From a virus (taxonomy: Duplodnaviria; Caudoviricetes): a stretch of DNA of 64,000 bases. The stretch lies in IMG/VR virus record IMGVR_UViG_3300047157_000186; one strand, 5' to 3'. Both the position numbers and the translations under genes were made by a program. Of the stretch, positions 9,284 to 59,056 are shown piece by piece. A model generated the notes under the pieces. The model was not told the origin of the DNA, ran no database searches, and saw only the letters and a program-made list of their open reading frames with translations. Position 1 is the stretch's first letter. Every line of letters starts with the position of its first letter.

Positions 9284-10825
9284 ATGATAACAGTATTTGG
9301 CGATTTTGAACCAACACCAACACCAACTGCGACATCAATTCCAACAGGTAATTGTCAGCATTCATGGTTTTCAATAGAAGTAGATCAAAATAAGTACGGC
9401 ATACGTTACAAATCAATAGAAACTGGAAATTATGTAACAACACGCCTTACTATGGCAATAAGTACTGCAAATGTATGGCGCTTTGGACAGGAAGGTTATG
9501 TTGTTTCTGTATGTTCACAAGAAGTAGTAAATGTATATGATTTTAATAATAACGCAATCGTCAGTGGTATTGATGGTTTTGAAAGATTAGCTTCAGGTGG
9601 TTCATGTTCTAATGATGGTCCATGTTCTTATGATGCTCCTAACCCAACTGCAACACCAGTACCAACTGCAACACCAGTTCCAACACCCTCACCTACTCAA
9701 ACACCAGATTGTCTATATTATACTTTAGTACCTAGTTCTGGTGAAACAACTGCAACTTATGCTTGGATAGCATGTGGAGGAGGAACTCAATTTAGTACTT
9801 GGACAGGTTTATCTGGAGATCAAAGAATTGTTTGTGCTAAATATGGTACAGTAAGAAAAACTAGTGGAAGCGGATCGATATTTGTTGGTAGTGAATGTGA
9901 ATTACCACCACCTTCTCCAACACCAACTGCAACACCAGTTCCAACATCGAGACCAACTGCAACACCATATCCAACTGCAACACCTAATCCAACTGCTGCA
10001 CCACCTACAGCAACACCTATACCATTTCCAACTGCAACACCAGTTCCAACACCAAACAAAGACTCAGGTGGAGGTTCAGGACCTGTAGAACCAACACCGT
10101 TGCCAACGCCGGTTCCACCAACTGCAACACCATCATATTATGTATATGAATTGAGTTCATGTAATTCTGAACAATCAAATGTTAAAGCTAGATCTAATAC
10201 TCAACTAGTAATAGGAGGCAAATATGAACTTACTGGTTCTAGTTACCAAAGTGGATCACCATGGACTATTTTAAGAACAAGAACTGGTTTTTACGAAACA
10301 TGGATTGGCAATGTAACGAGAGATGCATGTGACAGTGGAGGTGAATGTTTATTAGAAGGAACACAAATTAAATTACCTAATGGAACGTCTACACAAATAG
10401 AAACATTAAAAATAGGTGATACTTTAGCTTCTAATAACATAGGTAATATGCCAAATACTGATAATGTACTTGAATTATTAACATGGGAAGAAACTGATCC
10501 ATCAGTTTCAAGTACAACTACAACTATTGTAGGTATAGAATTAAATACTGTTACTAGAGTTTTAAACTTTAATCAAGGATTATTAACATCAACAGTAGCA
10601 CATTTACATATTATTAAAAGAGATAATTTATGGATGGTTACCCAAGCAATAAATATCAAAGAAGGTGATATCTTTATAGATGATAGTGGTACAGAACATA
10701 TTATCAATTCAATCGAAGATATGTCTGGAACTTTCAATACTTATAAAATAGATGTTGAAGAGAATGATACATATATCGCTAATAATATTATTACACATAA
10801 TAGGAAATTACAGGATCCAGTCTAA
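9284..10825 (+). CDS. Pro/Thr-repeat, Cys-rich protein with C-terminal Hint (intein-like) domain
   Basis: PTATP repeats; Hint block A CLLEGT (nt 10346), block B TVAH, block F YKIDVE, terminal THN (nt 10801) then RKLQDPV. Confidence 0.8.
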   Translation: MITVFGDFEPTPTPTATSIPTGNCQHSWFSIEVDQNKYGIRYKSIETGNYVTTRLTMAISTANVWRFGQEGYVVSVCSQEVVNVYDFNNNAIVSGIDGFERLASGGSCSNDGPCSYDAPNPTATPVPTATPVPTPSPTQTPDCLYYTLVPSSGETTATYAWIACGGGTQFSTWTGLSGDQRIVCAKYGTVRKTSGSGSIFVGSECELPPPSPTPTATPVPTSRPTATPYPTATPNPTAAPPTATPIPFPTATPVPTPNKDSGGGSGPVEPTPLPTPVPPTATPSYYVYELSSCNSEQSNVKARSNTQLVIGGKYELTGSSYQSGSPWTILRTRTGFYETWIGNVTRDACDSGGECLLEGTQIKLPNGTSTQIETLKIGDTLASNNIGNMPNTDNVLELLTWEETDPSVSSTTTTIVGIELNTVTRVLNFNQGLLTSTVAHLHIIKRDNLWMVTQAINIKEGDIFIDDSGTEHIINSIEDMSGTFNTYKIDVEENDTYIANNIITHNRKLQDPV

Positions 10826-27804: not shown

Positions 27805-29848
27805 ATGTCATTAGCAGACGGATACGAAAACGAGAAAAATAGAAAAGGAAGTTCAAAGAAAAAAACTACTCCATTCTTAGATGAATTTGGGGAAGATTTA
27901 ACTTTGGCAGCATCTGAAGGTAAATTAGACCCGATTATCGGGAGAGATAAAGAGATTTATAGAATTTGCCAGATATTAGCTCGTAGAAAGAAAAATAATC
28001 CTATTATATTAGGTGACCCAGGAGTTGGTAAAACTGCAATTGTTGAAGCAATTGCTCAACGAATTATTGATAAGAAAGTTGCAAGAGTTTTGATAAACAA
28101 ACGACTTATCTCTATCAACATGACAACTATTGTTGCAGGAACCAAATATCGTGGAGAATTTGAAGAGAGAATGAAAAACATTGTCGAAGAACTTAAAAAC
28201 AATGACAATATTATTGTATTCATCGATGAATTACACACTATTGTTGGTGCAGGTGGAGTGAGTGGTGCATTAGATGCATCAAACATTCTTAAACCAGCTT
28301 TAGCAAGAGGACAAGTTCAATGTATCGGTGCAACAACATTAGATGAATATAGAGAAAACGTTGAAGATGATGGAGCACTTACTCGTAGATTCCAAGAAGT
28401 GTTTGTAGACGCACCATCAGTAGATGATACTATTAATATATTAATGCGTATCAAACATAACTACGAAGAATATCACTCTGTAGAATACACAGATGAAGCA
28501 ATTGACGCATGTGTTAGAATGAGTGATCGTTACATTAAACAACGTGAATTACCTGATAAAGCTATTGATTTATTAGATGAGGCTGGAGCAAGAACACATT
28601 TATTAGAAGTTAAAGTTCCTTCAAGAATCAAAACACTTGAGAAGCAAGCTGAAGAAATAAAATCAGAAAAGAAAGCTGCAGTTGAAAAACAAGATTATGA
28701 AGTTGCAGCGAGACTTAGAGATGATCAAATTTCTATAGAAAGCAGAATATTAAGTGAGACTAAAGATTGGGAAGAATCTCTTAAGAAATCAAAAAGACAA
28801 ATTAATATTTCAGACATAGCTGAAACTATTTCAACACAAACAGGAATTCCTGTTAATAAATTAGGAACTGATGATCTTAAGATGATTAAAGCAATGTCTT
28901 CAGAAATCAAGAATATGATTATCGGCCAAGACAGAGCAGTAGATGCATTATGTAAAGTAATTAAAAGATCTAGAACTGGAGTTGCAAGTCACAAAAAACC
29001 AAGTGGTTCATTTATGTTTTTAGGTCCAACTGGTGTTGGTAAAACTGAAACAGTCAAAGCCCTAGCAGAATATATGTTCGGAGATACTGATGCAATGATT
29101 AGAATTGATATGTCAGAGTATCAAGAAAAGTTTAATGTATCTAGATTGATTGGAGCTCCTCCGGGATATGTAGGTCATGAAGATGGTGGTCAATTAACTG
29201 AAGCAGTAAGACGTAAACCTTATTCTGTAGTCTTATTCGATGAGGTTGAAAAAGCACACCCAGATATTTTCAATACTTGCTTCAAGTCTTAGATGAAGGT
29301 AGATTAACAGATTCTAATGGTAGAGTTGTAGACTTTACAATACACTATCATTGTAATGACATCTAATGTTGGTGCAAGAAAGGTTGCAGACTTTGGAACT
29401 GGTATTGGATTCTCAACCTCAAATCTAATGTTGCAGAAGACAAGCAAAAAGATGGATGGTATTATTAAGAAAGAATTAAAGAATAAATTTAGTCCTGAAT
29501 TTTTAAATAGATTAGATGATATTATTTTATTTGACCAATTACAATCTGAGACATTTTAAAAATTGTAGATATTGAACTTAATAATTTTATTGAAAGAATG
29601 TCAATAGAAGATTATACATTTAAGTTTCTAAACCAGCAAAAGATTTTTAGCTAAAAGAAGGTTACGATCAAGCATATGGTGCAAGACCCATTAAAAGAGC
29701 TATTCAAAGATATGTTGAAGATATAGTTGCTGATGCAATACTAGATGCTTTGACAAAAGGTAAAGAATATACTATTACAAAAAACAAAGACGAAGATAAA
29801 CTAACTTTAGTAAATTATCATATAATAACTACTATAAACACAAGGTAA
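27805..29848 (+). CDS. clpC: ClpC/ClpB-type AAA+ chaperone lacking the N-domain, with UVR M-domain; C-terminal part broken by several indels (29277-29660)
   Basis: Walker A GDPGVGKT and GPTGVGKT; IDELH; [11 protein letters not shown]; [11 protein letters not shown]; RIDMSEY; GYVG; PEFLNRLD; YGARP. The end coordinate depends on manual frame correction. Confidence 0.85.
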
Positions 29849-41466: not shown

Positions 41467-44190
41467 ATGTCTCAATTGAAACTAAAACAAATACTTGACT
41501 TTTTATCTTCTTCACCAACAACAGGTGAGGTATTGTCATATAATTCAAGTACCGGAAAGTATGAAAACCAACAATTACCAAACACGTTTGGTCTTCCTTA
41601 TGTTTATAATAGCGCAACAAATCCCACGACAGTTTCTTCTGGTGATTTAGCGTTTGATAATCCTAGTAATCCTAGTAAAATAATTATAAGTGAAACTAAT
41701 GCTAGAGGTGGTTCTGCAACTGTAACATTAAATGCTGCAGTCGCTTCATCGAATAATTATAAATCTATTATTGTATTAGCAAAATCAACTGACGGTAATG
41801 CAAATAAATCATTCTATGTAACAGGAAACACAACTGCTTCTGGACAAAGAACATTTAGCTTACAACCTATTTCAAGTTCTAATTGGAACAATGTTAGTGA
41901 TAATGATTCTTTGTTTATGTTTATCCAACCTATCGGTGATGTTGGAACATCAGGAACTTCAGGATCAAATGGTTCAAGTGGAAGTTCAGGAACTAATGGA
42001 ACGAGCGGTGTAAGTGGAACTTCAGGTTCTTCAGGAACTAATGGATCAAGTGGATCTTCAGGAACTAATGGAACTTCAGGAACTGATGGAACTAGCGGAT
42101 CTTCAGGTTCAAGTGGAAGTTCAGGAACAGATGGAACTTCAGGAACGAATGGAACTTCAGGTACTAATGGATCAAGTGGATCTTCAGGAACTGATGGAAC
42201 AAGTGGAGTTAAAGGTGATCAAGGTGATAATTATAGTGGAGCAACTTTATCTGGGAATAATTTAATATTGACGCATTCTGTCAATGGAGCTGAAAATGTA
42301 GGTAGAGTAGTATATGTTGGAACTTCAGGAACTGATGGTTCAAGCGGAAGTTCAGGTTCAAGCGGATCTTCAGGAATTACAGGTACAATTGCAGTAGGAA
42401 CAGTATCTACTGGTTTAGAAAATACTCCAGTAAGTGTTACTAATACTGGAACATCAACTGCAGCAGAATTTGATTTTACTATTCCTGTTGGTGCAACTGG
42501 AGCAAAAGGTGCTCCTGGAACTCCAGCTATTAATGGAACTAGTGGATCTTCTGGATCTAGTGGTGTTAAAGGAGACAAAGGAGCTCCAGGTACAAGTGGT
42601 ACTGATGGAACTTCAGGAACTAACGGAAGTTCAGGAACTGACGGTTCAAGTGGAAGTTCAGGTTCAAGTGGAAGTTCAGGAACTGATGGAACTTCAGGAA
42701 CGAATGGAACTTCAGGAACGAATGGAACTTCAGGAACTGATGGATCAAGTGGTTCTTCTGGAACTGATGGAAGTTCAGGAACTGACGGAACTTCAGGAAC
42801 GAATGGAACTTCAGGAACGAATGGAACTAGCGGATCTTCAGGTTCAAGTGGAAGTTCAGGTACTGATGGAACTTCAGGAACTAATGGAACTTCAGGAACG
42901 AATGGAACTAGTGGAACTAATGGAAGTTCAGGTTCTTCAGGAACTGACGGAACTAGTGGAACTAACGGAAGTTCAGGAACTGATGGAACTTCTGGTACAA
43001 ATGGTACAAGTGGAACGAATGGAACAAACGGAAGTTCAGGTTCTTCAGGAACAAATGGAACAAACGGATCTTCAGGATCAAGTGGATCTTCAGGTGCACA
43101 AGGTAATCCAGGTTGGGGTGTTTCAATGCAAGGACAAGTAGCTACATCATCAAATTTACCAACATCTGGTAATTCAGATGGTGATGCATATATAGTACAA
43201 TCAGACGATTCTCTTTGGGTATTTACACAAGCAGACGGTTGGATTGGCGGTGGTTCTATTCAAGGACCAGCTGGTTCTTCAGGAACTAATGGAACAAATG
43301 GAAGTTCAGGTTCTTCAGGAACTGATGGAACTTCAGGATCAAGTGGAAGTTCAGGTACTGATGGAACTTCAGGAACGAATGGAACAAGTGGAACTGATGG
43401 AACTTCAGGATCAAGTGGATCAAGTGGAAGTTCAGGTACTGATGGAACTTCAGGAACGAATGGAACAAGTGGTACTGATGGAACTTCAGGATCAAGTGGA
43501 TCAAGTGGAAGTTCAGGTACTGACGGAACCTCAGGAACGAATGGAACTTCAGGTTCTTCAGGAACTGATGGAACAAGTGGAACTAATGGAACTTCAGGAT
43601 CAAGTGGATCAAGCGGAACTTCAGGAACGAATGGAACTAGTGGAACGAATGGAACTTCAGGAACGAATGGAACTTCAGGAACGAATGGAACTTCAGGTTC
43701 TTCAGGAACGAATGGAACAAACGGATCTTCTGGATCGAGTGGTTCTTCAGGTTCTTCAGGTCTAAAAGGTAATACTGGTACTTCTAATACCTATGCAACT
43801 GCGATGAATCAACATACAAAAACAGATTCAAATGTTGAGCATCATGATTTATATTTAACAGGTGCTTTAAAAAGAGATTTTATATCTGTTAACGGTGTTG
43901 GCGGTGTTTATGACATCAAACCTGATCAAGGTGACGCATTCGTATTTACAGCAACTGGTTTAATTGATATCACAATGTCTAATATAGGTTCTGACAACGT
44001 AGGTCAATCTGGAACTATAGTAATCATAAACGGTGCAGGTGCAGGATACAATGCATTACCATCTTATATGAAAACACCTTCAGGTGCTGACATTCAATGG
44101 GTAACTACTCAAGGTGCAGTATCTATTATATCGTATATTATAATAGATGTTGACGCTGTATTAGTTAACTACATTGGAAATTTTGCGTAA
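41467..44190 (+). CDS. 907-aa Gly-Ser/Thr collagen-like fibre protein
   Basis: [12 protein letters not shown] triplets; knot module GDAYIVQSDDSLW; N-terminal QLKLKQI. Confidence 0.8.
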   Translation: MSQLKLKQILDFLSSSPTTGEVLSYNSSTGKYENQQLPNTFGLPYVYNSATNPTTVSSGDLAFDNPSNPSKIIISETNARGGSATVTLNAAVASSNNYKSIIVLAKSTDGNANKSFYVTGNTTASGQRTFSLQPISSSNWNNVSDNDSLFMFIQPIGDVGTSGTSGSNGSSGSSGTNGTSGVSGTSGSSGTNGSSGSSGTNGTSGTDGTSGSSGSSGSSGTDGTSGTNGTSGTNGSSGSSGTDGTSGVKGDQGDNYSGATLSGNNLILTHSVNGAENVGRVVYVGTSGTDGSSGSSGSSGSSGITGTIAVGTVSTGLENTPVSVTNTGTSTAAEFDFTIPVGATGAKGAPGTPAINGTSGSSGSSGVKGDKGAPGTSGTDGTSGTNGSSGTDGSSGSSGSSGSSGTDGTSGTNGTSGTNGTSGTDGSSGSSGTDGSSGTDGTSGTNGTSGTNGTSGSSGSSGSSGTDGTSGTNGTSGTNGTSGTNGSSGSSGTDGTSGTNGSSGTDGTSGTNGTSGTNGTNGSSGSSGTNGTNGSSGSSGSSGAQGNPGWGVSMQGQVATSSNLPTSGNSDGDAYIVQSDDSLWVFTQADGWIGGGSIQGPAGSSGTNGTNGSSGSSGTDGTSGSSGSSGTDGTSGTNGTSGTDGTSGSSGSSGSSGTDGTSGTNGTSGTDGTSGSSGSSGSSGTDGTSGTNGTSGSSGTDGTSGTNGTSGSSGSSGTSGTNGTSGTNGTSGTNGTSGTNGTSGSSGTNGTNGSSGSSGSSGSSGLKGNTGTSNTYATAMNQHTKTDSNVEHHDLYLTGALKRDFISVNGVGGVYDIKPDQGDAFVFTATGLIDITMSNIGSDNVGQSGTIVIINGAGAGYNALPSYMKTPSGADIQWVTTQGAVSIISYIIIDVDAVLVNYIGNFA

Positions 44191-44215: not shown

Positions 44216-47200
44216 ATGAAGAATATAGGATTTTCAAGAATCGACTTTTGGAGTACCGGAAGTGCACAGAATACATCTAAGGGTACACTTGTAGCTAAGA
44301 ATACTACTTGGGCTACTTCTAAAACTACATCTGAAAATAGAAATACTTCGAGAACTACTGAAAAGGTACGTAATACTAGTCAATCTACAACAACAACGTG
44401 GATAACTACATGGTCAACTAGTAAATCAACTACAACAACTTTCAATACATCTCGTAGTACTAGTACTGTATATGCAACTTCAAGATCAACGACAACATCA
44501 TGGACAACATCATGGAACACATCTAGAGAAACATCTTTAGAAACTGATAGAACTACAACAACAACATGGTCGACTTCTAAAAACACGTCGCAATCAACTG
44601 AGAGAACTACAACTACTACATGGACAACTAGTTGGACAACTAGTCAATCTACATTGTACCCTGTTGAAACTACTTGGAACACAAGTCAATCCACATCTAG
44701 AACGACAACTACAGTATACACTACATATTGGACCACTTCTTGGAATACAAGTAAATCAACGATTACTTCTTATATTACTACATATACAACAACGTGGTCA
44801 ACTACTAGAGCTACGACAACGTCATATAATACAACTTGGACAACTAGTAAATCGACAACTAGATCTACTAGTCGTGACACTACAACAACTTTTAATACAA
44901 ATCAGTCAACGTCTAGAAGCACAACGACTGTATATAATACAACTTGGATTACAAGTCAGACAACGTCTAGAAGTACTGAACATTCAACAATAACTAAATT
45001 TAGTACAAGTCAGTCAACGTCTCATTCGACAACGACCGTATATAATACAACTTGGATTACAAGTCAGACAACAAGTAGAGGAACAGAACATTCGACAACG
45101 ACTACGTTTAATACAAGTCAGTCAACTACTAAATCTACGACGACTACATTTACAACAACATGGTCAACTAGCAAATCAACTTCTAGATCTACTACTAAAT
45201 CGACAACGACAACGTTTAATACAAACCAATCGACAAGTAGATCCACTAAAACAACATGGACTACTACTTGGTCGACTAGTAAATCAACATCTAAAGGAAC
45301 TACAAGAAATACCACAACAACATGGGTAACAAGTAGACCAACTGAACATACAACGACAACTACATTTAATACGACGTGGTCAACTAGTAAATCGACAACT
45401 ACTACTTTTAACACTACATGGAAAACTTCATGGAACACAACTAGAAGTACTAATCGTTCTACAACAACTACATTCAATACTAGTCAATCAACTTCGCATT
45501 CTACAACAACTGCGTGGACAACTACTTGGGTGACAAGTCAAGGAACTAGTAGAGAAACAAGTAAGAATACAACAACTAGATTTATTACTAGTAGAAGTAC
45601 AGAACATGTCACTACTACGACGTTTAATACAACATGGGCAACTAGTAAATCTACTACAACTTCATGGACTACAACTTTTGGTACAACTTTCAATACAACT
45701 AGATCTACTAATAAAAGTACAACGACTACGTTTAATACAACATGGTCAACTAGTAGAGCAACAACAACTTCATGGACAACTTCATGGAACACAACTGTAC
45801 TGACTTCCAGATCTACTTATAAAAACACAACGACTACGTTTAATACAACATGGTCAACTAGCAGATCGACAACGACAACGTTTAATACGACTAGATCAAC
45901 TACGACTACATTTAATACAAGTCAATCAACTAATAAGAATACAACAACTAGTTGGAATACGACTAGATCAACGACAACGACTTGGAACACAACTAGGGCT
46001 ACGACGACTGTATATAATACATCATGGAATACAACTAAGTCAACGACGACTACGTTCAATACAACTAGGTCAACAACAACGACGTTTAATACAAATAAGT
46101 CAACGACAACTGTATTTAATACATCTTGGAATACAACTAGATCTACTACAACTACATTTGCAACCAGTAAATCGACAACAACAACATTTGTAACTAGTAG
46201 AGGTACAGAACATTCGACAACAACAACTTATAATACAACTAGATCTACATCAACTAGTTGGAATACAACTAAGTCAACAACGACTGTGTATAATACTTCA
46301 TGGAATACAACTAAGTCAACGACAACAACGTTTTCAACTAGTAAATCGACGACAACAACGTTTTCAACTAGCCAATCAACTAATAAGAATACGACAACAA
46401 CGTTTAATACGACTAGATCTACATTAACTACATGGATTACAAGTAGATCAACTGAACGTGTGACAACAACAACATGGAATACAACGCGTTCAACAACGAC
46501 TACGTTTAATACAACGCGTTCAACAACGACTACGTTTGCAACTAGTAAATCTACAACGACTACGTTTAATACATCTTGGAATACAAGTAAGAATACAACA
46601 ACAACGTTTGCAACGAGTAAATCCACTAGAACTACTTGGACAACTTCATGGAACACTGCGCGAAATACAACGACAACATGGAATACAACTAAGTCAACGA
46701 CAACTACGTTTGCAACAAGTAGAGGTACATCACGTGCTACGACAACAACATGGATAACTAGTAAGAATACAACGACAACGTTTGCAACTAGTAAATCTAC
46801 AACGACAACGTTTGCAACTAGTAAATCTACGACAACAACATATAAAACAAGTTGGAATACTGCAATATCAACGACAACAACATTTGCCACGTCTAGAGTA
46901 ACTGATAGAAATACTAGTAAATCGACAACAACAACGTTTAATACTGGATACTCTAGATCAACAACTAAATCAACATCATGGAGTACATTAGTTCCTGCAG
47001 ATAATAGTTCAGGTGGAGGTGCAGGTGTTTTGACTTATTGGAACACAACAGTTACATATAACACATCTTTTTCAACCGCGTTATACGTCAATACATCTAG
47101 AGGAACTTCTAGAAACACTGTTGAAGAATGTATAGTTGAAGGAACACTAGTTCATATTGCCGAAGGTGAACAAAGACTAGTTGAAACTTTAGTACATGGT

Positions 47201-47665
47201 CAAAGTATTTTAACTATGGATGGATCGTTTAATGTAGATAACGTTAGTGATTTAAGTCTTATCAGAGAAGAAGAAGTATACACGAATTCATTATCTAATG
47301 AACATACTGCTGTAAATATTTGGAGAGCAGATGTTATAGGAACGGTTAATATAAATGACGGACAATTAAGAACTACCATGGGACACATACACATCATAAA
47401 AAGAGATGGTGAGTGGCAAGCAAGGACAGCGGATCAGTTAGAAATTGGTGATGTTATGTTTAAGCTTGACTATGGAGAATTTTTGATAGAGTCTTTAGAA
47501 ATGGATGAAGTTAATCAATATACAGTTTATAAATTAGACGTAGAACCTAACGATACATTCTTTGCAAATGGAATTTTAACACATAATAAAAAAGATGCAT
47601 TATGTTCACACGAGGATAAATGTACGCGAGGGCATCCATGTGAGGATAGATTTTACCCTTGTTAA
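44216..47665 (+). CDS. 1149-aa Thr-rich repeat protein with C-terminal Hint domain and Cys-rich tail
   Basis: TTT(F/W)NT(S/T)(R/K)ST repeats; Hint CIVEGT (47129), TMGH, YKLDVE, THN (47587), then a 25-aa tail with 4 Cys. Confidence 0.8.
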   Translation: MKNIGFSRIDFWSTGSAQNTSKGTLVAKNTTWATSKTTSENRNTSRTTEKVRNTSQSTTTTWITTWSTSKSTTTTFNTSRSTSTVYATSRSTTTSWTTSWNTSRETSLETDRTTTTTWSTSKNTSQSTERTTTTTWTTSWTTSQSTLYPVETTWNTSQSTSRTTTTVYTTYWTTSWNTSKSTITSYITTYTTTWSTTRATTTSYNTTWTTSKSTTRSTSRDTTTTFNTNQSTSRSTTTVYNTTWITSQTTSRSTEHSTITKFSTSQSTSHSTTTVYNTTWITSQTTSRGTEHSTTTTFNTSQSTTKSTTTTFTTTWSTSKSTSRSTTKSTTTTFNTNQSTSRSTKTTWTTTWSTSKSTSKGTTRNTTTTWVTSRPTEHTTTTTFNTTWSTSKSTTTTFNTTWKTSWNTTRSTNRSTTTTFNTSQSTSHSTTTAWTTTWVTSQGTSRETSKNTTTRFITSRSTEHVTTTTFNTTWATSKSTTTSWTTTFGTTFNTTRSTNKSTTTTFNTTWSTSRATTTSWTTSWNTTVLTSRSTYKNTTTTFNTTWSTSRSTTTTFNTTRSTTTTFNTSQSTNKNTTTSWNTTRSTTTTWNTTRATTTVYNTSWNTTKSTTTTFNTTRSTTTTFNTNKSTTTVFNTSWNTTRSTTTTFATSKSTTTTFVTSRGTEHSTTTTYNTTRSTSTSWNTTKSTTTVYNTSWNTTKSTTTTFSTSKSTTTTFSTSQSTNKNTTTTFNTTRSTLTTWITSRSTERVTTTTWNTTRSTTTTFNTTRSTTTTFATSKSTTTTFNTSWNTSKNTTTTFATSKSTRTTWTTSWNTARNTTTTWNTTKSTTTTFATSRGTSRATTTTWITSKNTTTTFATSKSTTTTFATSKSTTTTYKTSWNTAISTTTTFATSRVTDRNTSKSTTTTFNTGYSRSTTKSTSWSTLVPADNSSGGGAGVLTYWNTTVTYNTSFSTALYVNTSRGTSRNTVEECIVEGTLVHIAEGEQRLVETLVHGQSILTMDGSFNVDNVSDLSLIREEEVYTNSLSNEHTAVNIWRADVIGTVNINDGQLRTTMGHIHIIKRDGEWQARTADQLEIGDVMFKLDYGEFLIESLEMDEVNQYTVYKLDVEPNDTFFANGILTHNKKDALCSHEDKCTRGHPCEDRFYPC

Positions 47666-47724
47666 TAGAGAATAATCTAGAAGATAAAGAAATGAAATAT
47701 ATAAAAAAATAACAGAGATAGAAA

Positions 47725-50649
47725 ATGCCTACTACTTATTTTAATACAACATGGTTAACTGCTGGCTCTAGAAATACGTACGTATCTACTACAAAGACTA
47801 GGTCTACTTCCAGATACACGTCATATAATAGGGTAACTTCGAGAAATACGGCGAAGACTACATATTGGAACGTAAGTACAAGTAAGGCAACGACAACATC
47901 ATGGACTACTAAAGTTACTACTTCATGGAACACAACTAGGGGAACAACGACATCGAGAAGCACAAACCAACAAACATCTCATGCAACAACAACTACATGG
48001 AATACAACTAGAGCTACAACGACTACATGGAATACAACTAGAACAACCGAAACAAAATGGAACACAACTAAGTCAACGACTACATCATTTAATACATCTT
48101 GGAATACAACTCGAGCTACAACTACAACGTTTGCAACTAGTAAGGCAACGGCAACAACATTTAGTACAAGTCAGTCAACTGCTAAAGACACAACGACAAC
48201 ATGGAATACAACTAGAGCAACATTAACAACATGGGTCACAAGTAGATCAACTGAACGTGCTACGACAACAACATGGAATACAACTCGAGCTACGACAACA
48301 ACGTTCAATACAACTCGTGCAACGACAACTACATTTGCAACTAGTAAATCGACAACGACTGTATTTAATACATCTTGGAATACAAGTAAGAATACGACTA
48401 CTACATTTGCAACTAGTAAATCCACTAGAACTACTTGGACAACTTCATGGAATACAACTCGAGCTACAACTACAACGTTTAATACAACTCGAGCTACAAC
48501 TACCACGTGGTCTACAAGTCAGTCAACGTCTCATTCGACAACGACTACGTTTGTAACTAGTAAAAATACAACGACTACGTTTAAAACTAGTAAATCAACG
48601 ACTACATCGTATAACACATCTTGGAATACAACTAGGTCAACGACAACAACGTTTAATACTTCCAAGTCAACAACGACTACGTTTATAACTAGTAGGTCAA
48701 CAGAGCGTGTTACTACAACTACATGGGCAACTAGTAAATCTACGACTACTACATTTGCAACAAGTAAATCTACTACAACAACATTTGTAACTAGTAGAGG
48801 AACAGAACATTCCACGACTACTACATTTGCAACTAGTAAATCGACAACAACTACGTTTATAACTAGCCAGTCAACTAGAACTACTTGGACTACAACATGG
48901 TCAACTAATAGATCAACGACAACAACGTTCAATACAACTCGTGCAACGACAACTACATTTAACACAAGTCAATCGACAAGTAAATCCACTAAAACAACAT
49001 GGACAACTTCTTGGAATACTGTCAGAGGAACTAGTAAAGTAACTAGTAAATCGACAACGACTACGTTTAACACAAGTCAATCGACGAGTAGAGCAACTAC
49101 AACAACATGGACTACTACTTGGGCAACATCAAGAAATACAACTAGAGGAACTAGTAAAACGACAACGACTACGTTTAACACAAGTCAATCGACTGAAAGA
49201 GAAACGACTACTGTTTATAACACGTCATGGAACACAACGAGAACTACGATAACTTCATACACTACTTCATGGACTACTTCATGGAATACAAGTAGAGGCA
49301 CATCGAAAACTACAACAACAGTTTATAATACATCATGGTCAACTAGTAAATCAACTGTAACTACATTCAATACTACTTGGATAACAAATCAGAATACAAC
49401 GAGATCTACTTCTAGAACAACAACTACTACTTTTAATACAAGTCAGTCAACTTCTAGAACAACGACTACGTCGTATAACACATCTTGGAACACTACAAGA
49501 TCCACTGAAACTGCATGGACTACTTCATGGGTGACAACGTTTAATACAAACAGGTCAACGTATAAAAATACAACGACTACGTTTACAACAACATGGTCAA
49601 CTAGTAAATCTACAACGACTACGTTTACAACTACGTTCACAACAACGTTTAATACTAATCAGTCAACAAGTAAATCTACAACGACTACATTTAATACAAC
49701 GTGGTCAACTAGTAGAGCAACGACTACGAGTTATACAACTTCATGGACTACTTCATGGAACACAACTAGAGGAACAGAACATGTGACTACTACTGTTTAT
49801 AACACGTCATGGAACACAACTAGATCGACAACTACAGTTTACAATACTTCATGGACAACTTCATGGAACACAACTAGAGGAACAGAACATTCGACTACGA
49901 CTACGTTTACAACAACATGGTCAACTAGTAAATCAACTGTAACTACGTTCAACACTACTTGGACTACGTCATGGAACACAACTTATGGAACGTCTCATTC
50001 AACTACGACAACGTTTAATACGTCTCAGTCTACAAATCATGGAACGTCTCATTCGACAGTAACTATATGGAGTACATCTAGAGGAACTAACAAAGGAACA
50101 GAACACGCAACGACAACTGCATGGACAACGACTTGGGAAACTAGTAGAATTACGAACTATTCACGTACGACATCATGGACTACGCAATATCAAACTAGTC
50201 AGTCAACGGTAACTACATTTAACACAACGTGGTTAACAACATTTAATACCAATCAGTCAACAACAACTGCATGGGTGACATCGTGGGTGACAACATTTAG
50301 TACGTCTCAAACAACGTCTAAAACGACAACGACTACATTTAACACAAGTCACTCGACAACGACAACGTTTAATACGACTAGATCAACTACGACTACATTC
50401 AATACGAATGCAGCTACATCTAAATCGACAACGACAACGTGGTCAACTATTTATAGTGTTACTACTTCGTGGAATACTGCATGGAACACAACAACAACGT
50501 GGAACACGACGAGATCTACAACAAGTGCTATTACTACAACGTGGAGTACAGATTACGAAGTGCAAGAAACTTGGTATTCAACTAACGCACCATTAGATGT
50601 TTATAATACAAATAGACAATGGAGAGTAAACAGTTATAACGGTAACTAG
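47725..50649 (+). CDS. 974-aa Thr-rich repeat protein
   Basis: Same repeat grammar as the 44216 ORF, with no Hint domain. Confidence 0.8.
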   Translation: MPTTYFNTTWLTAGSRNTYVSTTKTRSTSRYTSYNRVTSRNTAKTTYWNVSTSKATTTSWTTKVTTSWNTTRGTTTSRSTNQQTSHATTTTWNTTRATTTTWNTTRTTETKWNTTKSTTTSFNTSWNTTRATTTTFATSKATATTFSTSQSTAKDTTTTWNTTRATLTTWVTSRSTERATTTTWNTTRATTTTFNTTRATTTTFATSKSTTTVFNTSWNTSKNTTTTFATSKSTRTTWTTSWNTTRATTTTFNTTRATTTTWSTSQSTSHSTTTTFVTSKNTTTTFKTSKSTTTSYNTSWNTTRSTTTTFNTSKSTTTTFITSRSTERVTTTTWATSKSTTTTFATSKSTTTTFVTSRGTEHSTTTTFATSKSTTTTFITSQSTRTTWTTTWSTNRSTTTTFNTTRATTTTFNTSQSTSKSTKTTWTTSWNTVRGTSKVTSKSTTTTFNTSQSTSRATTTTWTTTWATSRNTTRGTSKTTTTTFNTSQSTERETTTVYNTSWNTTRTTITSYTTSWTTSWNTSRGTSKTTTTVYNTSWSTSKSTVTTFNTTWITNQNTTRSTSRTTTTTFNTSQSTSRTTTTSYNTSWNTTRSTETAWTTSWVTTFNTNRSTYKNTTTTFTTTWSTSKSTTTTFTTTFTTTFNTNQSTSKSTTTTFNTTWSTSRATTTSYTTSWTTSWNTTRGTEHVTTTVYNTSWNTTRSTTTVYNTSWTTSWNTTRGTEHSTTTTFTTTWSTSKSTVTTFNTTWTTSWNTTYGTSHSTTTTFNTSQSTNHGTSHSTVTIWSTSRGTNKGTEHATTTAWTTTWETSRITNYSRTTSWTTQYQTSQSTVTTFNTTWLTTFNTNQSTTTAWVTSWVTTFSTSQTTSKTTTTTFNTSHSTTTTFNTTRSTTTTFNTNAATSKSTTTTWSTIYSVTTSWNTAWNTTTTWNTTRSTTSAITTTWSTDYEVQETWYSTNAPLDVYNTNRQWRVNSYNGN

Positions 50650-50667
50650 AAATAACTCAATTAATTT

Positions 50668-50697
50668 AAAAAGCATACTTCGGTATGCTTTTTTTTT
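50668..50697 (+). terminator. Rho-independent terminator
   Basis: AAAAAGCATAC-TTCG-GTATGCTTTTT plus T-run. Confidence 0.9.
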
Positions 50698-50771: not shown

Positions 50772-51683
50772 ATGGAAATGTTTAACAAAAAGGTTCTAGA
50801 TGAAAGAATTGGGCCTCTAAAGAAAAACACAAAATTAGAACCGCTTGAACAAGTAGAGCGATACGTTTTAAGAAAATGTAGAGAACTTGGATTAGAACAC
50901 AGTTATGATGTTATAGCAGAAGAAATGCCATACTTCAAAACAATGGGATATACAGAATATGCCACTTGTTTTTTACTGCAACCACTAAACCTTAAAATGA
51001 GAAGAGAACAAGTAGCCGACGCTTTAGCACATGATGTCGAACACGTTTCTGATTGGGTATCTTATTTTAGAGAAAACATAGAAAAAGACCAAGCTAATAA
51101 ATATCAAAAGCGCAACAAAGACTTCGACAGATATGAAGATAAAAGCACTTTGGTTATTTTACCAGGTTCAAATAAGCTTAAAGAAAACTGTTGTTTAAAT
51201 AAATTAATTGAAGTTGCTGATAAACACAAAGGTGATGTTTATTTTAAACCACATCCTATTACTACACATGCAGTCATAGGCGAAATTAAAGATTTATTTG
51301 GTGAAGAATCTATTTTACCTAGAGACATAGATCTTTATTACTTTTTACAAAAAGCTAAAACAGTATATAGCACACATATTAGTGAAAGCGCATTATATTC
51401 TGTTGTCCTTGAAAAAGAAGTTTATCCAATGGATGTGTGGAATAATATAAGTAGAGGATCTTTTTATACTATAAACTCCAGTCTTTATGATAATAAAGAA
51501 AGAGGCGCAGAATGGATTAATCAAGTATTTTCTAGTTACAAATCTGGAATTATAAATCCAGCTATTGATGAAGATTGGAAAGGTAAAGTAGATGATTACA
51601 TGAATTATATGTATGAAAAAAGAGAATATTACAAAGGTTGGTTTATAGACGCTCCACCTAAAGTTAAAAGAAATAAGAACTAA
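50772..51683 (+). CDS. Capsule-synthesis (KpsS/KpsC-like) GT-B domain protein
   Basis: VYFKPHP and V.STH.SESAL..VVLEKEV resemble the KxHP / T.NS..G.EA.L..KPV motifs. Confidence 0.45.
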   Translation: MEMFNKKVLDERIGPLKKNTKLEPLEQVERYVLRKCRELGLEHSYDVIAEEMPYFKTMGYTEYATCFLLQPLNLKMRREQVADALAHDVEHVSDWVSYFRENIEKDQANKYQKRNKDFDRYEDKSTLVILPGSNKLKENCCLNKLIEVADKHKGDVYFKPHPITTHAVIGEIKDLFGEESILPRDIDLYYFLQKAKTVYSTHISESALYSVVLEKEVYPMDVWNNISRGSFYTINSSLYDNKERGAEWINQVFSSYKSGIINPAIDEDWKGKVDDYMNYMYEKREYYKGWFIDAPPKVKRNKN

Positions 51684-51693
51684 ATTATAAATT

Positions 51694-51720
51694 AAACCTA
51701 CACTCGTGTGGGTTTTTTTT
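51694..51720 (+). terminator. Rho-independent terminator
   Basis: AAACCTACA-CTCG-TGTGGGTTT followed by a T-run. Confidence 0.6.
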
Positions 51721-51732
51721 GCTACATTAATA

Positions 51733-52752
51733 ATGAGAATATTATTTTATGCGGGCTATCAAAAGAATAAATTTGATGGTGATACAAATGAAGGATTAGC
51801 AGGAACTGAAATTGCTATAATTAATATAGCCGAAGAGATGGTTAAATTTGGTTATAAGGTTGTGGTTTCTGGTGAAGTAAAAGATTCTGGTTTAATTAAT
51901 GGAGTAGAATGGATATCAACACATGAATTACATGAAAAATATTTTGATCAGTTTGATTATATTATATCTGCAAGTTATATTCATTTTTTAAAAGAGTTTG
52001 AAAAATATTCAGCAAAGAAAGTATTTTGGGCACATAATACACATCATCACCCATGGTGGAATCACGAAGTGTTAGAAGACGCAAACCTTTTAACACAACA
52101 AGTTGATCATACAATTTGTTTGACTAATTGGCATAAGAATCACTGGGCACATACATATAATATACCTTTAAATAAAATCTCGGTGATTGGTAATGCCATT
52201 GATCCTTCAACATTTAGTGGTACTCCTGAAAAAGTTAAAGGTAAATTCATATATAGTTCTGCACCCGAACGTGGCTTATTGGAATTATTAAAAAACTGGC
52301 CAAAGATAAAAACTATAATGCCACATGCAACACTAGACATTTATTCTCCTGGATATTCTATAGCAAATCATACTGACTATTCATTTAATAAGTTTAAAGA
52401 AGTAACATGTCACGGTAGTGTAGATCAAAAAACATTACATAATGCCATGCTACGTGCAGAATATTGGTGTTATATAACTGATTATGAAGAAACATATTGT
52501 ATAACTGCACTTGAAATGCAATATGCCAAAGTATTACCTATTGTTACTAAAGTTGCTGCATTAAAAGAAACTGTAAATAGTGGAGTTATCTTAGAAAGAA
52601 ATGAAACAAATTGGAATCAGGCTATACAAATACTAGGTACACTAAGTAGTGGACTTAAGGATAAATCAATTAATGATGCATATAAATGGTCTAAACAACA
52701 AACATGGAATGTTAGATCATATGATTGGAAAAACATATTAGAATCTATATGA
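51733..52752 (+). CDS. GT4-family (GT-B) glycosyltransferase
   Basis: GLAGTE, IGNAID, YSSAPERGL, ETYCI.ALE.Q. Start moved to ATG 51733 because the tracked GTG lies inside the terminator. Confidence 0.8.
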   Translation: MRILFYAGYQKNKFDGDTNEGLAGTEIAIINIAEEMVKFGYKVVVSGEVKDSGLINGVEWISTHELHEKYFDQFDYIISASYIHFLKEFEKYSAKKVFWAHNTHHHPWWNHEVLEDANLLTQQVDHTICLTNWHKNHWAHTYNIPLNKISVIGNAIDPSTFSGTPEKVKGKFIYSSAPERGLLELLKNWPKIKTIMPHATLDIYSPGYSIANHTDYSFNKFKEVTCHGSVDQKTLHNAMLRAEYWCYITDYEETYCITALEMQYAKVLPIVTKVAALKETVNSGVILERNETNWNQAIQILGTLSSGLKDKSINDAYKWSKQQTWNVRSYDWKNILESI

Positions 52753-54083
52753 AAATAGATAAAATTTATATTATAAGCTTGAACGCTGGAGATCCAAGCA
52801 TTCAAAGAAGTATTGCCGAGAGGGTAGATCAACTTGGTATGCCATATTCTGTAGCGTGGGAAATAGTTCAAGGTTTTGATGGAACTTCAGGCAATTTATT
52901 AGATGGACACAGTGTATATAATTTATGGAATTTAGGATCTGATTCATGGAATGATTGGTGGAAAAGAGATGTTACTGGCGGAGAAGCAGGTTGTGCAATT
53001 AGTCACTTAAATATATGGAAAAATATAATAGAAGACAATATCAATTGTGCATTAATACTAGAAGATGATTTTGTTTCAGTAGCTCCACTTACAAATCCAG
53101 TTATTCCAAACACAGAATGGGATATTGCATTTTTAGGTAGAAATGCTATATGTCCTAAGGATGAAAAAAGAATTGATGTAAGTAATAAATGGGTAACAGC
53201 ACTTAGTAGTTATAATACACATGCATATGTAATTAAAAGAGACGCTGCGAAAACGCTAGTCAATGATTACAACTTTCAACAAAATCTAATTGCGCCCGAT
53301 GAATTCTTAACGGCAACATATACAGATCATAGAAGACAAGATATTAATATACTGTTTCCACCAAAACTTAAAGCGATAGCTCCAGTTAATAATTGGATAG
53401 AACAAAATAGACCACACGAAAAATCCACGACAGAACCAAATGATGCCAATATTAATTTATTGAAAAAACAACCTTATTTCGAAATACTAGATGACAGTGA
53501 TTGGGATTCATGGAAATCAAAGTATGTAAACGAAACAGTGGCTAAGGGTGAATATGATTTAATGATAGATGATATAGGAAATAATATATATGAATTTCCA
53601 TTATTTACCGAAAAGTTCTGTAAAGAAGCAGTTGCTTTAGCAGAGGTTATGAATAAGTGGACAAAAGATAGACATGAATTTTATCCAACAAATGATGTCT
53701 TATTACCAGAAATAGGATTAGATAATATTTATAATAGAGTTATAAAAGAAATAGTTTCCCCACTTTGTATACATTTATGGGAATTAGAAGGTGCAGGTTG
53801 GGATAATATGAATACCGAAAACTTTATGGTAAGATATACTACTGATAGACAATCTCATTTAAGTTTACATCATGACTTTAGTCATATTACAATGGTAGTA
53901 AAATTAAATGATGAGTTTGATGGTGGCGGCACGTGGTTTCCAAAATATAAAATATTAGCAAATCCAAAATTAGTAGGTACTGCAACTATTCACCCTGGAA
54001 TGATCACACATAAACATGGTGCCAGACCAATACATAGTGGGAAAAGATACATCAACGTATCATTTATGAGAAAGAATAATTAA
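52749..54083 (+). CDS. Fusion of GT25 (collagen/LOS galactosyltransferase-like) and PLOD-type lysyl hydroxylase domain
   Basis: N: IYIISL, GEAGCAISH..IW, LILEDD, HAYVI. C: FPLFTEKFC, PTND, NFMVRY, SLHHD, GGGTWF, HPG.ITH.H, GKRYI.VSF. Confidence 0.8.
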   Translation: MKIDKIYIISLNAGDPSIQRSIAERVDQLGMPYSVAWEIVQGFDGTSGNLLDGHSVYNLWNLGSDSWNDWWKRDVTGGEAGCAISHLNIWKNIIEDNINCALILEDDFVSVAPLTNPVIPNTEWDIAFLGRNAICPKDEKRIDVSNKWVTALSSYNTHAYVIKRDAAKTLVNDYNFQQNLIAPDEFLTATYTDHRRQDINILFPPKLKAIAPVNNWIEQNRPHEKSTTEPNDANINLLKKQPYFEILDDSDWDSWKSKYVNETVAKGEYDLMIDDIGNNIYEFPLFTEKFCKEAVALAEVMNKWTKDRHEFYPTNDVLLPEIGLDNIYNRVIKEIVSPLCIHLWELEGAGWDNMNTENFMVRYTTDRQSHLSLHHDFSHITMVVKLNDEFDGGGTWFPKYKILANPKLVGTATIHPGMITHKHGARPIHSGKRYINVSFMRKNN

Positions 54084-58046: not shown

Positions 58047-58266
58047 AATAGCAAAAGAAATAGCGGTTCAATTAAAAAGAATAGCAGACGCATTAGAAAA
58101 ATCTAATAAAAATTCAGAAACATCTGAAAAAAGAAATGCTGTTATTGGTAAACTTCAAGAAAAAAATCTAAAAGCAGATCTAAGAGAAAAACTTAATTTA
58201 GATCAAGCAGATTACACGCCACATCCTAATTCTCCTAGATTTAAAACAGATGATGGATCCTTATAG
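58036..58266 (+). CDS. Hypothetical protein
   Basis: ORF track; overlaps its neighbours. Confidence 0.6.
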   Translation: MEDKIAKEIAVQLKRIADALEKSNKNSETSEKRNAVIGKLQEKNLKADLREKLNLDQADYTPHPNSPRFKTDDGSL

Positions 58267-59056
58267 TGTATTAGGTGTCGATAAAACATCTTCACAAGAT
58301 GACATTAAAAAAGCATATAGGAAACTAGCCAAAGAATATCATCCTGATAAAAACGATGGCAATGACGAAAGATTTAAAGAGATTGCTGACGCTTATGAAA
58401 AAATAGGCGATGATTCTTCGAGGCAAAAATATGACTCAGCTTCTAACTTTCAAAATTTTAACGGATTTGGTGATGGAAATATTAACATGTCAGATCTTTT
58501 TGATCAAGTATTTGGTAATGCATTTGGATCCAGACAATCATCTAAGGGCCAAGATTTAAGATTAGATTTACATTTAAGTTTTGATGAAGCTTACGCTGGA
58601 ACTTCTAAAAAGTTTGCAGTTAATGGTCAAGATATTAAAGTTGATTTTAAAGCTGGACTTAAAACAGGAATGAAACTAAGAGTCGCAGGAAAGGGACAAC
58701 CTCATCAATATAATTCTACACTACCAAACGGCGATCTAATTATTCACATACATGTGATGCATAATAGTAATTGGATTTTACAAGACAATGATATTTGGTT
58801 AGATTTAAATTTATCATGGGAAGATATATTTTTAGGAACTAAAATAAATGTAAATACACCTGAAGGTCCACTTTATATTAATGTACCTAAGAATAGTTAT
58901 CCTGGAAAAGTTCTTAGAATCAGAGATCGAGGATATCCAATATATGGCACCGAAAAAAAAGGTGCACTTTTATGTAAATTAAATGCTTCTTATTTTGAAC
59001 TTAATTCCGAACAACTGGAATATATAAAGAAAGTAAAGAGCATAAAAGATGAATGA
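58250..59056 (+). CDS. dnaJ: DnaJ-class co-chaperone (J domain plus C-domain, no Zn finger; CbpA-like)
   Basis: DPY.VLGV...IKKAYRKLA.EYHPDKN; G.KLRV.GKG; GDL.I.I. Confidence 0.9.
   Translation: MMDPYSVLGVDKTSSQDDIKKAYRKLAKEYHPDKNDGNDERFKEIADAYEKIGDDSSRQKYDSASNFQNFNGFGDGNINMSDLFDQVFGNAFGSRQSSKGQDLRLDLHLSFDEAYAGTSKKFAVNGQDIKVDFKAGLKTGMKLRVAGKGQPHQYNSTLPNGDLIIHIHVMHNSNWILQDNDIWLDLNLSWEDIFLGTKINVNTPEGPLYINVPKNSYPGKVLRIRDRGYPIYGTEKKGALLCKLNASYFELNSEQLEYIKKVKSIKDE

Follow-up and report, generated by a model that had tools for sequence, protein, structure and literature searches.

One of the closest described counterparts of the system discussed here is the needle of gp37, at the tip of the T4 long tail fibre, which reportedly forms a six-stranded antiparallel fold-back structure, said to have been described by Bartual et al. 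in 2010 (PDB 2XGF). It is a homotrimer of single fold-back chains of about 15 nm, held together by His-x-His iron sites. Other tailspikes and fibres, such as the K1F endosialidase and the T5 L-shaped fibre, carry C-terminal self-cleaving chaperones, which assist in-register assembly and then remove themselves. A different type of self-processing is found in Hint domains: BIL domains without a nucleophile at the +1 position mainly cleave (PMC7664689), and, according to the reference of the same article to Aranko et al. 2013, BIL-like ligation is possible without a side-chain nucleophile. Here, we describe a locus in a 64,000-nucleotide stretch of viral DNA (IMG/VR virus record IMGVR_UViG_3300047157_000186; Caudoviricetes), referred to in its full length as the window, in which two adjacent genes encode giant Thr-rich proteins, P1 and P2, whose sequences complement each other in mirror order over about 900 residues. 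We consider it probable that P1 and P2 together make up one heteromeric antiparallel β-ribbon fibre, each supplying one of its strands; this fibre would be processed by a Hint domain at the end of P1 and possibly glycosylated.

Two Thr-rich chains with mirrored sequences

The P1 and P2 genes lie head to tail with a gap of 59 nucleotides and are divided into the following parts:

44216-47665, + strand: P1 gene (open reading frame and translation), 1149 residues; Thr-rich arm, Hint domain and Cys-rich tail
44216-44266, + strand: P1 residues 1-17, N-terminal cap MKNIGFS(R/K)IDFWSTGSA, not in the paired code
44267-46990, + strand: P1 residues 18-925, arm facing P2 residues 944-37 (i+j=962)
46991-47026, + strand: P1 residues 926-937 (VPADNSSGGGAG), 12-residue bulge, register shift of 10
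47027-47128, + strand: P1 residues 938-971, terminal arm segment facing P2 residues 34-1 (i+j=972)
47129-47587, + strand: P1 residues 972-1124, Hint domain (BIL-type)
47588-47665, + strand: P1 tail of 25 residues with four Cys, and stop codon
47725-50649, + strand: P2 gene (open reading frame and translation), 974 residues; complementary Thr-rich arm
47833-50556, + strand: P2 residues 37-944, arm facing P1 residues 925-18
50557-50646, + strand: P2 residues 945-974, conserved C-terminal tail (…ETWYSTN.PL…NRQWR.NSYNGN)

Over about 940 residues, the arms alternate in an unbroken dipeptide register between two parity classes, T/R/W/K/F/Q/Y/H (bulky face) and S/T/N/A/V/G/E (small face). All antiparallel, parallel and self registers of P1 and P2 were scored for net aromatic-basic pairs, and a single gapless antiparallel register stands out, in which residue i of P1 lies opposite residue 962-i of P2 (net score 180, z about 15.6); other antiparallel registers reach at most 65, parallel registers at most 39 and self-pairing at most 69. 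On the bulky face of P1 residues 18-925, the Thr/non-Thr pattern matches at 453 of 454 positions, with 254 T:T pairs and 186 aromatic:K/R/H/Q pairs, while like-with-like pairs amount to two aromatic:aromatic and one basic:basic. The pairs follow a small code, W opposite R, K or Q, F opposite R or K and Y opposite H, and Q is found solely opposite W and H solely opposite Y. Pooled over 17 diverse P1/P2 pairs, the counts are 377 for W-R, 349 for W-Q, 255 for F-K, 252 for Y-H, 207 for W-K and 192 for F-R. The small face also shows preferences across the pair, with N:S at twice and E:N at about four times the expected frequency, as expected of lateral neighbours within one sheet and not of two stacked sheets.

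Pairing of P1 or P2 with itself, either as an intramolecular hairpin or as a homodimer, was rejected on the basis of these scores (at most 69 versus 180 for P1:P2). A DNA-level origin of the mirror was rejected as well, since the Thr codons ACN reverse-complement to NGT, which encodes Ser, Gly, Cys or Arg and not Thr; nor can a DNA inversion be its source, as an inversion cannot yield a mirrored peptide. Direct in-register antiparallel contact of both chains would account for the pattern, and is the sole explanation that we can think of.

The complementarity is maintained in relatives through matching changes in both genes. In an orthologous locus, L004, both genes are 34 residues shorter and the indels fall at mirror-matched places, namely P1 648-671 and 780-789 versus P2 276-299 and 171-180 (P2 173-182 being the predicted counterpart of P1 780-789), and the two chains return to one gapless register, 928, in which they form 183 pairs. 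Compensatory substitutions are also seen: aromatic-basic pairs shift by two residues in both chains together (748/750 and 840/842) and the orientation of one pair is swapped at position 812 (W:Q to R:W), whereas one-sided breaks are rare. A metagenome scan seeded with the Hint domain yielded 67 loci in which, where the contig permits, the Thr-rich gene with the Hint cap has another Thr-rich gene next to it on the 3' side, and the order P1 then P2 is invariant. Among these, 25 distinct complete P1/P2 pairs from marine metagenomes can be aligned in antiparallel orientation over 87-990 columns with zero to four one-residue gaps; their P2 proteins range from 213 to 1042 residues, corresponding to about 200-1000 paired residues. 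The length of the P1 arm follows that of P2 with r = 0.998 (30 complete pairs, which are not phylogenetically independent), and cognate partners outscore non-cognate ones, close relatives excepted.

The two ends of the putative duplex differ in conservation. The P1 N-terminal cap is near-invariant across loci with large arms (the first 50 columns are 98% identical to L004), and together with the highly conserved P2 C-terminal tail of about 30 residues it lies at a common end, where a 13-residue overhang on the side of the P2 C-terminus is conserved in the large-arm loci. The variable end of phage fibres is usually the distal, host-facing one. By analogy, the conserved end formed by the P1 N-terminus and the P2 tail is probably the virion-proximal attachment end. 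At the opposite end, after the bulge, the last arm residue of P1, Glu971, faces Met1 of P2, and in many other loci the end of the P1 arm and the start of P2 are flush within about two residues. The B-type arms adjoining this end (45767-46894 and 48016-48969) diverge most in both genes, with pS 0.55-0.61 versus 0.34 in the A-type arms; as the B arms are mutually paired and diverge jointly, this suggests that the Hint-proximal half of the duplex has been exchanged or is evolving as one unit.

Composition and repeat structure of the arms

An initial annotation, made from the letters and their reading frames, had described two giant Thr-rich proteins nearly free of Pro, Gly and acidic residues, and the counts bear this out. 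The repeat parts of P1 and P2 contain 43.0 and 45.2% Thr, 16.9 and 14.8% Ser and 7.2% Asn each, with about 10-11% aromatic residues and about 9% Arg plus Lys; Pro accounts for 0.3 and 0.1%, Gly for 1.5 and 1.3%, and Asp plus Glu for about 2 and 1.3%. HxH motifs number zero in both arms, which also lack Cys. The strict period of two, the Thr content of 43-45%, the near absence of Pro and Gly and the Cys-free arms all fit extended β strands.

The same annotation had proposed a grammar of about 10 residues. Repeats are indeed present, but periodicity analysis does not support a fixed decamer: aromatic-to-aromatic spacings are almost exclusively 4, 10, 14 and 18, that is, units of even length without a single period, which at the DNA level form super-repeats of 24/34 residues (type B) and 36/50 residues (type A). 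P1 is laid out as A then B and P2 as B then A, and the dipeptide register remains unbroken because all units are even. The repeat copies are 60-75% identical in DNA, and dN/dS against two orthologues is 0.15-0.38 for P1 and 0.11-0.29 for P2; the arms are therefore selected coding sequences and not the product of recent slippage. The recurrent N-T-(T/S) sequons that had been pointed out do exist, with 59 N-x-S/T sites in P1 and 54 in P2. However, most of them are part of the motif Ar-N-T-(S/T)-(K/R) (Ar, aromatic), which pairs with itself under two-fold symmetry so that Asn faces Ser across the pair. Because of this self-pairing, Asn directly follows an aromatic residue in 91 of 129 cases, and the sequons are therefore weak evidence for N-glycosylation.

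A Hint domain at the proposed blunt end

The last 178 residues of P1, which had gone unmentioned in the initial annotation, are non-repeat and comprise the Hint domain and the 25-residue tail with four Cys. The Hint motifs are intact: Cys972 follows ...NTVEE, the TxxH motif is T1054-M-G-H1057 and the domain ends with H1123-N1124, with Lys1125 at the +1 position. P1 itself gives weak Pfam matches to Intein_splicing and Hint_2, and its Hint relatives match PT-HINT at 2e-13. A profile of 16 relatives compared with solved Hint and intein chains retrieved 6y75/6tmm at E 2e-12 and the Pho RadA, Spl DnaX and gp41-1 inteins at E 1e-7 to 7e-4. In the alignment, the first position is Cys in all untruncated relatives, and the His of TxxH and the terminal HN are invariant; dN/dS over the domain is 0.22-0.23.

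An exhaustive search identified 696 relatives of the Hint domain. Among the best 150 of the 696, nearly all carry it at the extreme C-terminus, and the capped proteins are varied (VWA, collagen-like, RHS/fn3 and Thr-rich). The domain is followed by 0-50 residues, typically x-K with a conserved Lys at +1 or +2; K, A, R, I or similar residues occupy the +1 position, which is never C, S or T. A canonical class 1 intein was rejected as a description, as Lys1125 is not Cys, Ser or Thr and the domain is C-terminal instead of being inserted in a host protein. Since there is no +1 nucleophile, the domain is BIL-like, and based on its profile and the Cys1, TxxH and HN motifs it is assigned to the BIL type of the HINT superfamily, with a predicted autoprocessing activity. 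Cys-rich P1 tails are kept in the large-arm relatives and absent in the small-arm relatives.

A second Hint-capped protein is encoded in the window at 9284-10825 (+ strand). It has 513 residues and a Hint domain of the same family (…GGECLLEGT … IITHNRK…), before which lie linkers rich in Pro and Thr and small modules with Cys; its gene directly follows that of a 1577-residue collagen-like protein (4206-8939). C-terminal Hint capping therefore seems to be a general device for fibre-like proteins of this phage.

Genomic context and a conserved glycosyltransferase-like neighbour

The window is densely packed, with genes mostly on one strand and about 32-40% G+C, and the sequences most closely related to it are viral contigs in IMG/VR and contigs of up to 174 kb from marine metagenomes. 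In the ESM Atlas, where it has no model, P2 falls into clusters of viral hypothetical proteins only, labelled Uroviricota. The features flanking P1 and P2 are:

41467-44190, + strand: 907-residue collagen-like fibre protein upstream of P1 (Pfam Collagen, E 7e-70)
50668-50693, + strand: terminator-like hairpin directly 3' of P2, 11-bp stem and T run
50772-51683, + strand: open reading frame of 303 residues after P2, KpsC/WbbB-like GT-B-like fold
51706-52752, + strand: GT4-type glycosyltransferase
52725-54083, + strand: fusion of GT25 and a 2-oxoglutarate (2OG) oxygenase

Between P1 and P2 no terminator-like hairpin is found; a strong one occurs only after P2. No enrichment of the T4 late-promoter motif TATAAATA is seen, and the motif does not occur upstream of P1 or P2. 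The collagen-like neighbour upstream of P1 is conserved in 27 loci; we considered that it might run alongside the duplex and dropped this idea, as its length does not track the arm length. A further collagen-like protein, encoded at 2205-4097 (+ strand), has a weak match to plastocyanin/azurin-type copper-binding domains (PF00127, E 0.002), which is below the cut-off.

Three glycosyltransferase genes had been reported to follow P2 immediately, and this holds: the 303-residue protein, the GT4 enzyme and the GT25-2OG oxygenase fusion are encoded next, and a small HAD phosphatase and an ATP-grasp protein are likewise encoded downstream. The GT4 and GT25-2OG oxygenase genes are conserved in 11-13 loci. 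The gene for the 303-residue protein is the most conserved neighbour, located directly after P2 in 24 loci with 58-99% identity, and it is very common in marine metagenomes (at 90% identity, 379 clusters, all unnamed, on contigs of up to 260 kb). The protein has no Pfam or NCBIfam match. An AF2 model with a predicted local distance difference test (pLDDT) score of 83 gave a Foldseek match to WbbB/KrkA at E 2e-4, and VIA-align superimposed 222 residues on 6mgb (Z 11.1, root-mean-square deviation 3.8). The nearest structures are the β-Kdo (3-deoxy-D-manno-oct-2-ulosonic acid) transferases KpsC and WbbB, with Z 11.1 and 9.5, and the model thus predicts the GT-B-like two-domain fold of the retaining β-Kdo transferases GT99/GT107. 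The sequence K159-P-H-P162 (KPHP) is invariant in 20 homologues; it may correspond to the His-Pro motif of transferases using cytidine monophosphate (CMP)-activated sugars. Because a gene with a glycosyltransferase fold is the most conserved neighbour, it is a plausible idea that the fibre may be glycosylated, possibly with a CMP-activated acidic sugar.

Several other genes deserve mention here. A sugar-related cluster at 10890-15338 (+ strand), coding for a PF11397 GlcNAc-transferase-like protein (E 1e-75), a YibB/HtrL-like protein and an NAD-dependent epimerase/dehydratase, extends the glycosylation capacity near fibre genes. In Caulobacter phage Cr30, a homologue that shares 26% identity with the 303-residue protein (L072 6673-8939) is encoded just before the neck genes and is preceded by a Thr/Asn-rich open reading frame of 315 residues and one of 116 residues with 20% Thr and 19% Tyr; this group may be a miniature analogue of the locus. 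The window also encodes a ClpB-like double-AAA protein (27805-29292) and a full DnaJ with J domain and DnaJ_C (58250-59056), both on the + strand. That they form a disaggregase/co-chaperone set helping to handle aggregation-prone β arms is pure speculation.

A proposed fibre and its alternatives

We hypothesize that the P1 arm (about residues 18-971) pairs antiparallel and in register with P2 (about residues 944-1) to form a continuous two-chain β-ribbon. One face of this ribbon would carry alternating Thr:Thr and aromatic:basic/polar pairs and the other the small polar residues S, T, N and A, and the irregular order of the 4-, 10-, 14- and 18-residue units would act as a bar code that permits a single register. 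If stretched out completely, the approximately 940 paired residues would measure roughly 310 nm. The more variable half would terminate bluntly, with the first residue of P2 opposite the final arm residue of P1 and the Hint domain positioned at this tip. The last-made end of P1 would hence meet the first-made end of P2, and zippering could, as a speculation, follow P2 synthesis. The Hint domain would form a thioester at Cys972 and most likely removes itself once nucleation of the zipper has taken place at this end; its release may occur through hydrolysis, through transfer to a nucleophile close by, or through ligation of the BIL type to the Cys-rich tail. The KpsC/WbbB-like glycosyltransferase may decorate the fibre. 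A further variant, which we regard as chemically plausible but unlikely, is a trans-ligation in which the Glu971-Cys972 thioester is attacked by the free N-terminal amine of P2, positioned straight across from it by the zipper. This would give a covalently closed β-hairpin of about 1,900 residues, the two-gene equivalent of a single-chain fold-back shaft. Residue 2 of P2 is always Pro, Ala or Gly, and the initiator Met should therefore be removed.

Several points weigh against the proposed ribbon. A two-stranded ribbon 1 nm thick and 300 nm long is physically unusual, and the chains may instead form a bundle, a coil or a multi-strand needle. The kinship of the loci makes the length correlation of 0.998 overstate the number of independent events. 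Single-sequence AF2 prediction of P1 900-1149 was unusable (pLDDT 30). No deposited phage genome was found to carry the two-gene form in searches with blastn (whole region) and tblastn (Hint domain and P2 441-974), in which the low-complexity filter may hide arm matches, and the tail-fibre role consequently rests on context and on the annotation of a distant relative in a Stenotrophomonas phage (see below). A word-indexed search with the P2 tail (residues 860-974) likewise gave no match at E <= 0.001. A complex prediction for P1 560-760 and P2 202-402 returned no answer (score 0.00, controls not run) and speaks neither for nor against pairing.

The alternative that we take most seriously, albeit tentatively, is that several P1:P2 duplexes are bundled, for instance three heterodimers in a six-stranded antiparallel needle or a wider alternating P1/P2 sheet closed to a tube, with the pairing code fixing how neighbouring strands are aligned. 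Trimers are the usual form of phage fibres, the six-stranded fold-back reported for the T4 gp37 needle offers a precedent, and bundling would leave one face buried and stiffen the structure relative to a ribbon of 1 nm; moreover, the code could be satisfied on both strand edges if both neighbours share the register. However, the sequence holds no stoichiometry signal, gp37-like HxH metal sites number zero in both arms, and both faces are polar or bear Lys/Arg, leaving no obvious core. It is extremely improbable that P1 and P2 do not touch and form separate β-solenoids or cross-β homo-oligomers with flat Thr arrays of an ice-binding or amyloid-like kind. TxT motifs are abundant (114 in P1 and 120 in P2) and Thr ladders are typical of insect antifreeze solenoids, but the aromatic spacings of 4, 10, 14 and 18 are incompatible with a constant coil length, the best parallel P1:P2 register (39) and the self registers (at most 69) fall far below the antiparallel 180, and the covariation of length and indels between two separate genes would be left unexplained. 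Of the β-solenoid or cross-β fibre put forward in the initial annotation, the β fibre is retained, in line with the strict period-2 pattern, and the self-stacking forms are not, given the variable unit lengths and the antiparallel two-chain complementarity.

The other structure suggested in the initial annotation, a disordered, heavily O- or N-glycosylated mucin-like brush on the virion in which the periodicity merely spaces the sites, appears very improbable. Its appeal lies in arms that are about 60% Ser plus Thr with 113 N-x-S/T sequons, and in the three glycosyltransferase-type genes directly downstream, one of which is always linked to the pair. Yet a brush gives no reason for a mirror agreement at 453 of 454 positions, for compensatory indels or for a W/F/Y to R/K/Q/H code that is kept through compensatory changes; Pro is nearly absent, aromatic residues make up about 10%, and the Asn residues that follow an aromatic one (91/129) belong to the pairing motif. 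Glycosylation of a folded ribbon, on the other hand, is compatible with the pairing of P1 and P2 that we favour. As for the Hint domain, Hint domains are mobile and sometimes degenerate, and the one in P1 might be a canonical intein, or a decayed relic that takes no part in maturing the fibre. We judge this improbable in view of the absence of a homing endonuclease and of a +1 Cys, Ser or Thr, the extreme C-terminal position in nearly all of the best 150 of 696 relatives, the invariant or nearly invariant Cys1, TxxH and HN with dN/dS of 0.22-0.23, the conserved position opposite residue 1 of P2 and the second Hint-capped protein in the window.

If the pairing of P1 and P2 is physical, the two separately encoded chains would constitute a protein analogue of a nucleic-acid duplex: a limited set of side-chain pairs would let them settle into one register only along about 900 residues, and they would evolve, like RNA stems, by compensatory substitutions and indels. 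Such a fibre would add a new architectural principle to coiled coils, collagen and triple β-helices, would represent a class that structure predictors currently miss, and would offer a programmable, length-tunable β scaffold, natural versions of which span about 200 to 1000 paired residues. Were trans-ligation also to occur, the arms would be a natural protein 'duplex' whose alphabet of pairs (T:T, W:R/K/Q, F:R/K and Y:H) is readable and could be reprogrammed. With its place at the blunt end, the Hint cap points to intein chemistry serving a new purpose in virion assembly. Uncultured marine phages carry the module widely (67 loci in a single scan, and 379 protein clusters for the linked glycosyltransferase), and it probably matters for the way in which abundant ocean phages gain access to their hosts.

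Comparison with known systems

The proposed mirror-coded two-chain fibre with a Hint cap has an architecture without precedent in the literature searched. Full-text searches turned up no account of a shaft of this kind or of phage fibres with a Hint cap, and the lone match for 'Hint domain' in a phage paper concerns a terminase intein. Features of the locus are nevertheless shared with several described systems. Like the T4 gp37 needle, which is part of an adsorption organelle, P1 and P2 would form an elongated antiparallel β shaft with chains running out and back along its axis; here, antiparallel complementarity is seen at the sequence level, between two chains. Unlike gp37, P1 and P2 are two gene products with arms of about 940 residues and zero HxH motifs, and their register would be set by the aromatic/basic/Thr code. 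The self-cleaving chaperones of the K1F and T5 type resemble the proposed Hint function in being C-terminal, assisting assembly and then removing themselves. However, they are trimeric, use a Ser-Lys dyad and act on parallel homotrimers, and the Hint fold and its thioester chemistry are unrelated.

BIL and Hedgehog Hint domains likewise have Cys1 and TxxH, and the C-terminal His-Asn of P1 is that of A-type BIL domains. As in these domains, a +1 nucleophile and an endonuclease are lacking, and an N-S acyl shift leading to a thioester, followed by cleavage or transfer, would be expected. Unlike them, the P1 Hint domain caps a fibre arm at what would be a blunt duplex end, beside the free N-terminus of the partner. 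Coreless two- to three-stranded sheets with cross-strand aromatic/cationic and Thr pairs occur in designed β-hairpins (tryptophan zippers, Trp-Lys/Arg) and in the single-layer rods of OspA and SasG; those comprise 12-20 residues or globular repeats, whereas P1 and P2 would make up a natural bar-coded hetero-duplex of 900 residues. Insect TxT antifreeze solenoids and mucin or serine-rich-repeat glycoproteins are similarly Thr-rich, with flat Thr arrays or dense Ser/Thr. P1 and P2 differ from them in having no constant coil length, no Pro-rich disorder and two-chain complementarity.

The most direct counterpart was identified in a whole-protein search with P2, which matched, along with metagenomic relatives, a 1288-residue 'baseplate wedge subunit' at the gp7 position of Stenotrophomonas phage vB_SmaS-DLP_6 (AMQ65900.1). 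The similarity is weak (31-38% identity, E down to 2e-17), and no description of this shaft was found as far as we searched. Its gene (L073 7001-10867) lies within the baseplate gene cluster, and the C-terminal Thr-rich shaft of the encoded protein is self-mirrored about residue 974 (z = 10), with residues of about 715-960 opposite 1235-988 and a turn near 974. The DLP_6 shaft shares the code of P1 and P2, with aromatic residues opposite R/K/Q/H and Thr opposite Thr; based on these sequence features, it ties the mirror-code design to tail structure and is the sole link to a cultured phage. In contrast to the two-gene system of P1 and P2, it appears to be a single fold-back chain with about 250 residues per arm, which has no Hint cap and is joined to a baseplate-wedge domain in the same protein. 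DLP_6 thereby provides an experimentally tractable relative of the mirror-coded fibre.

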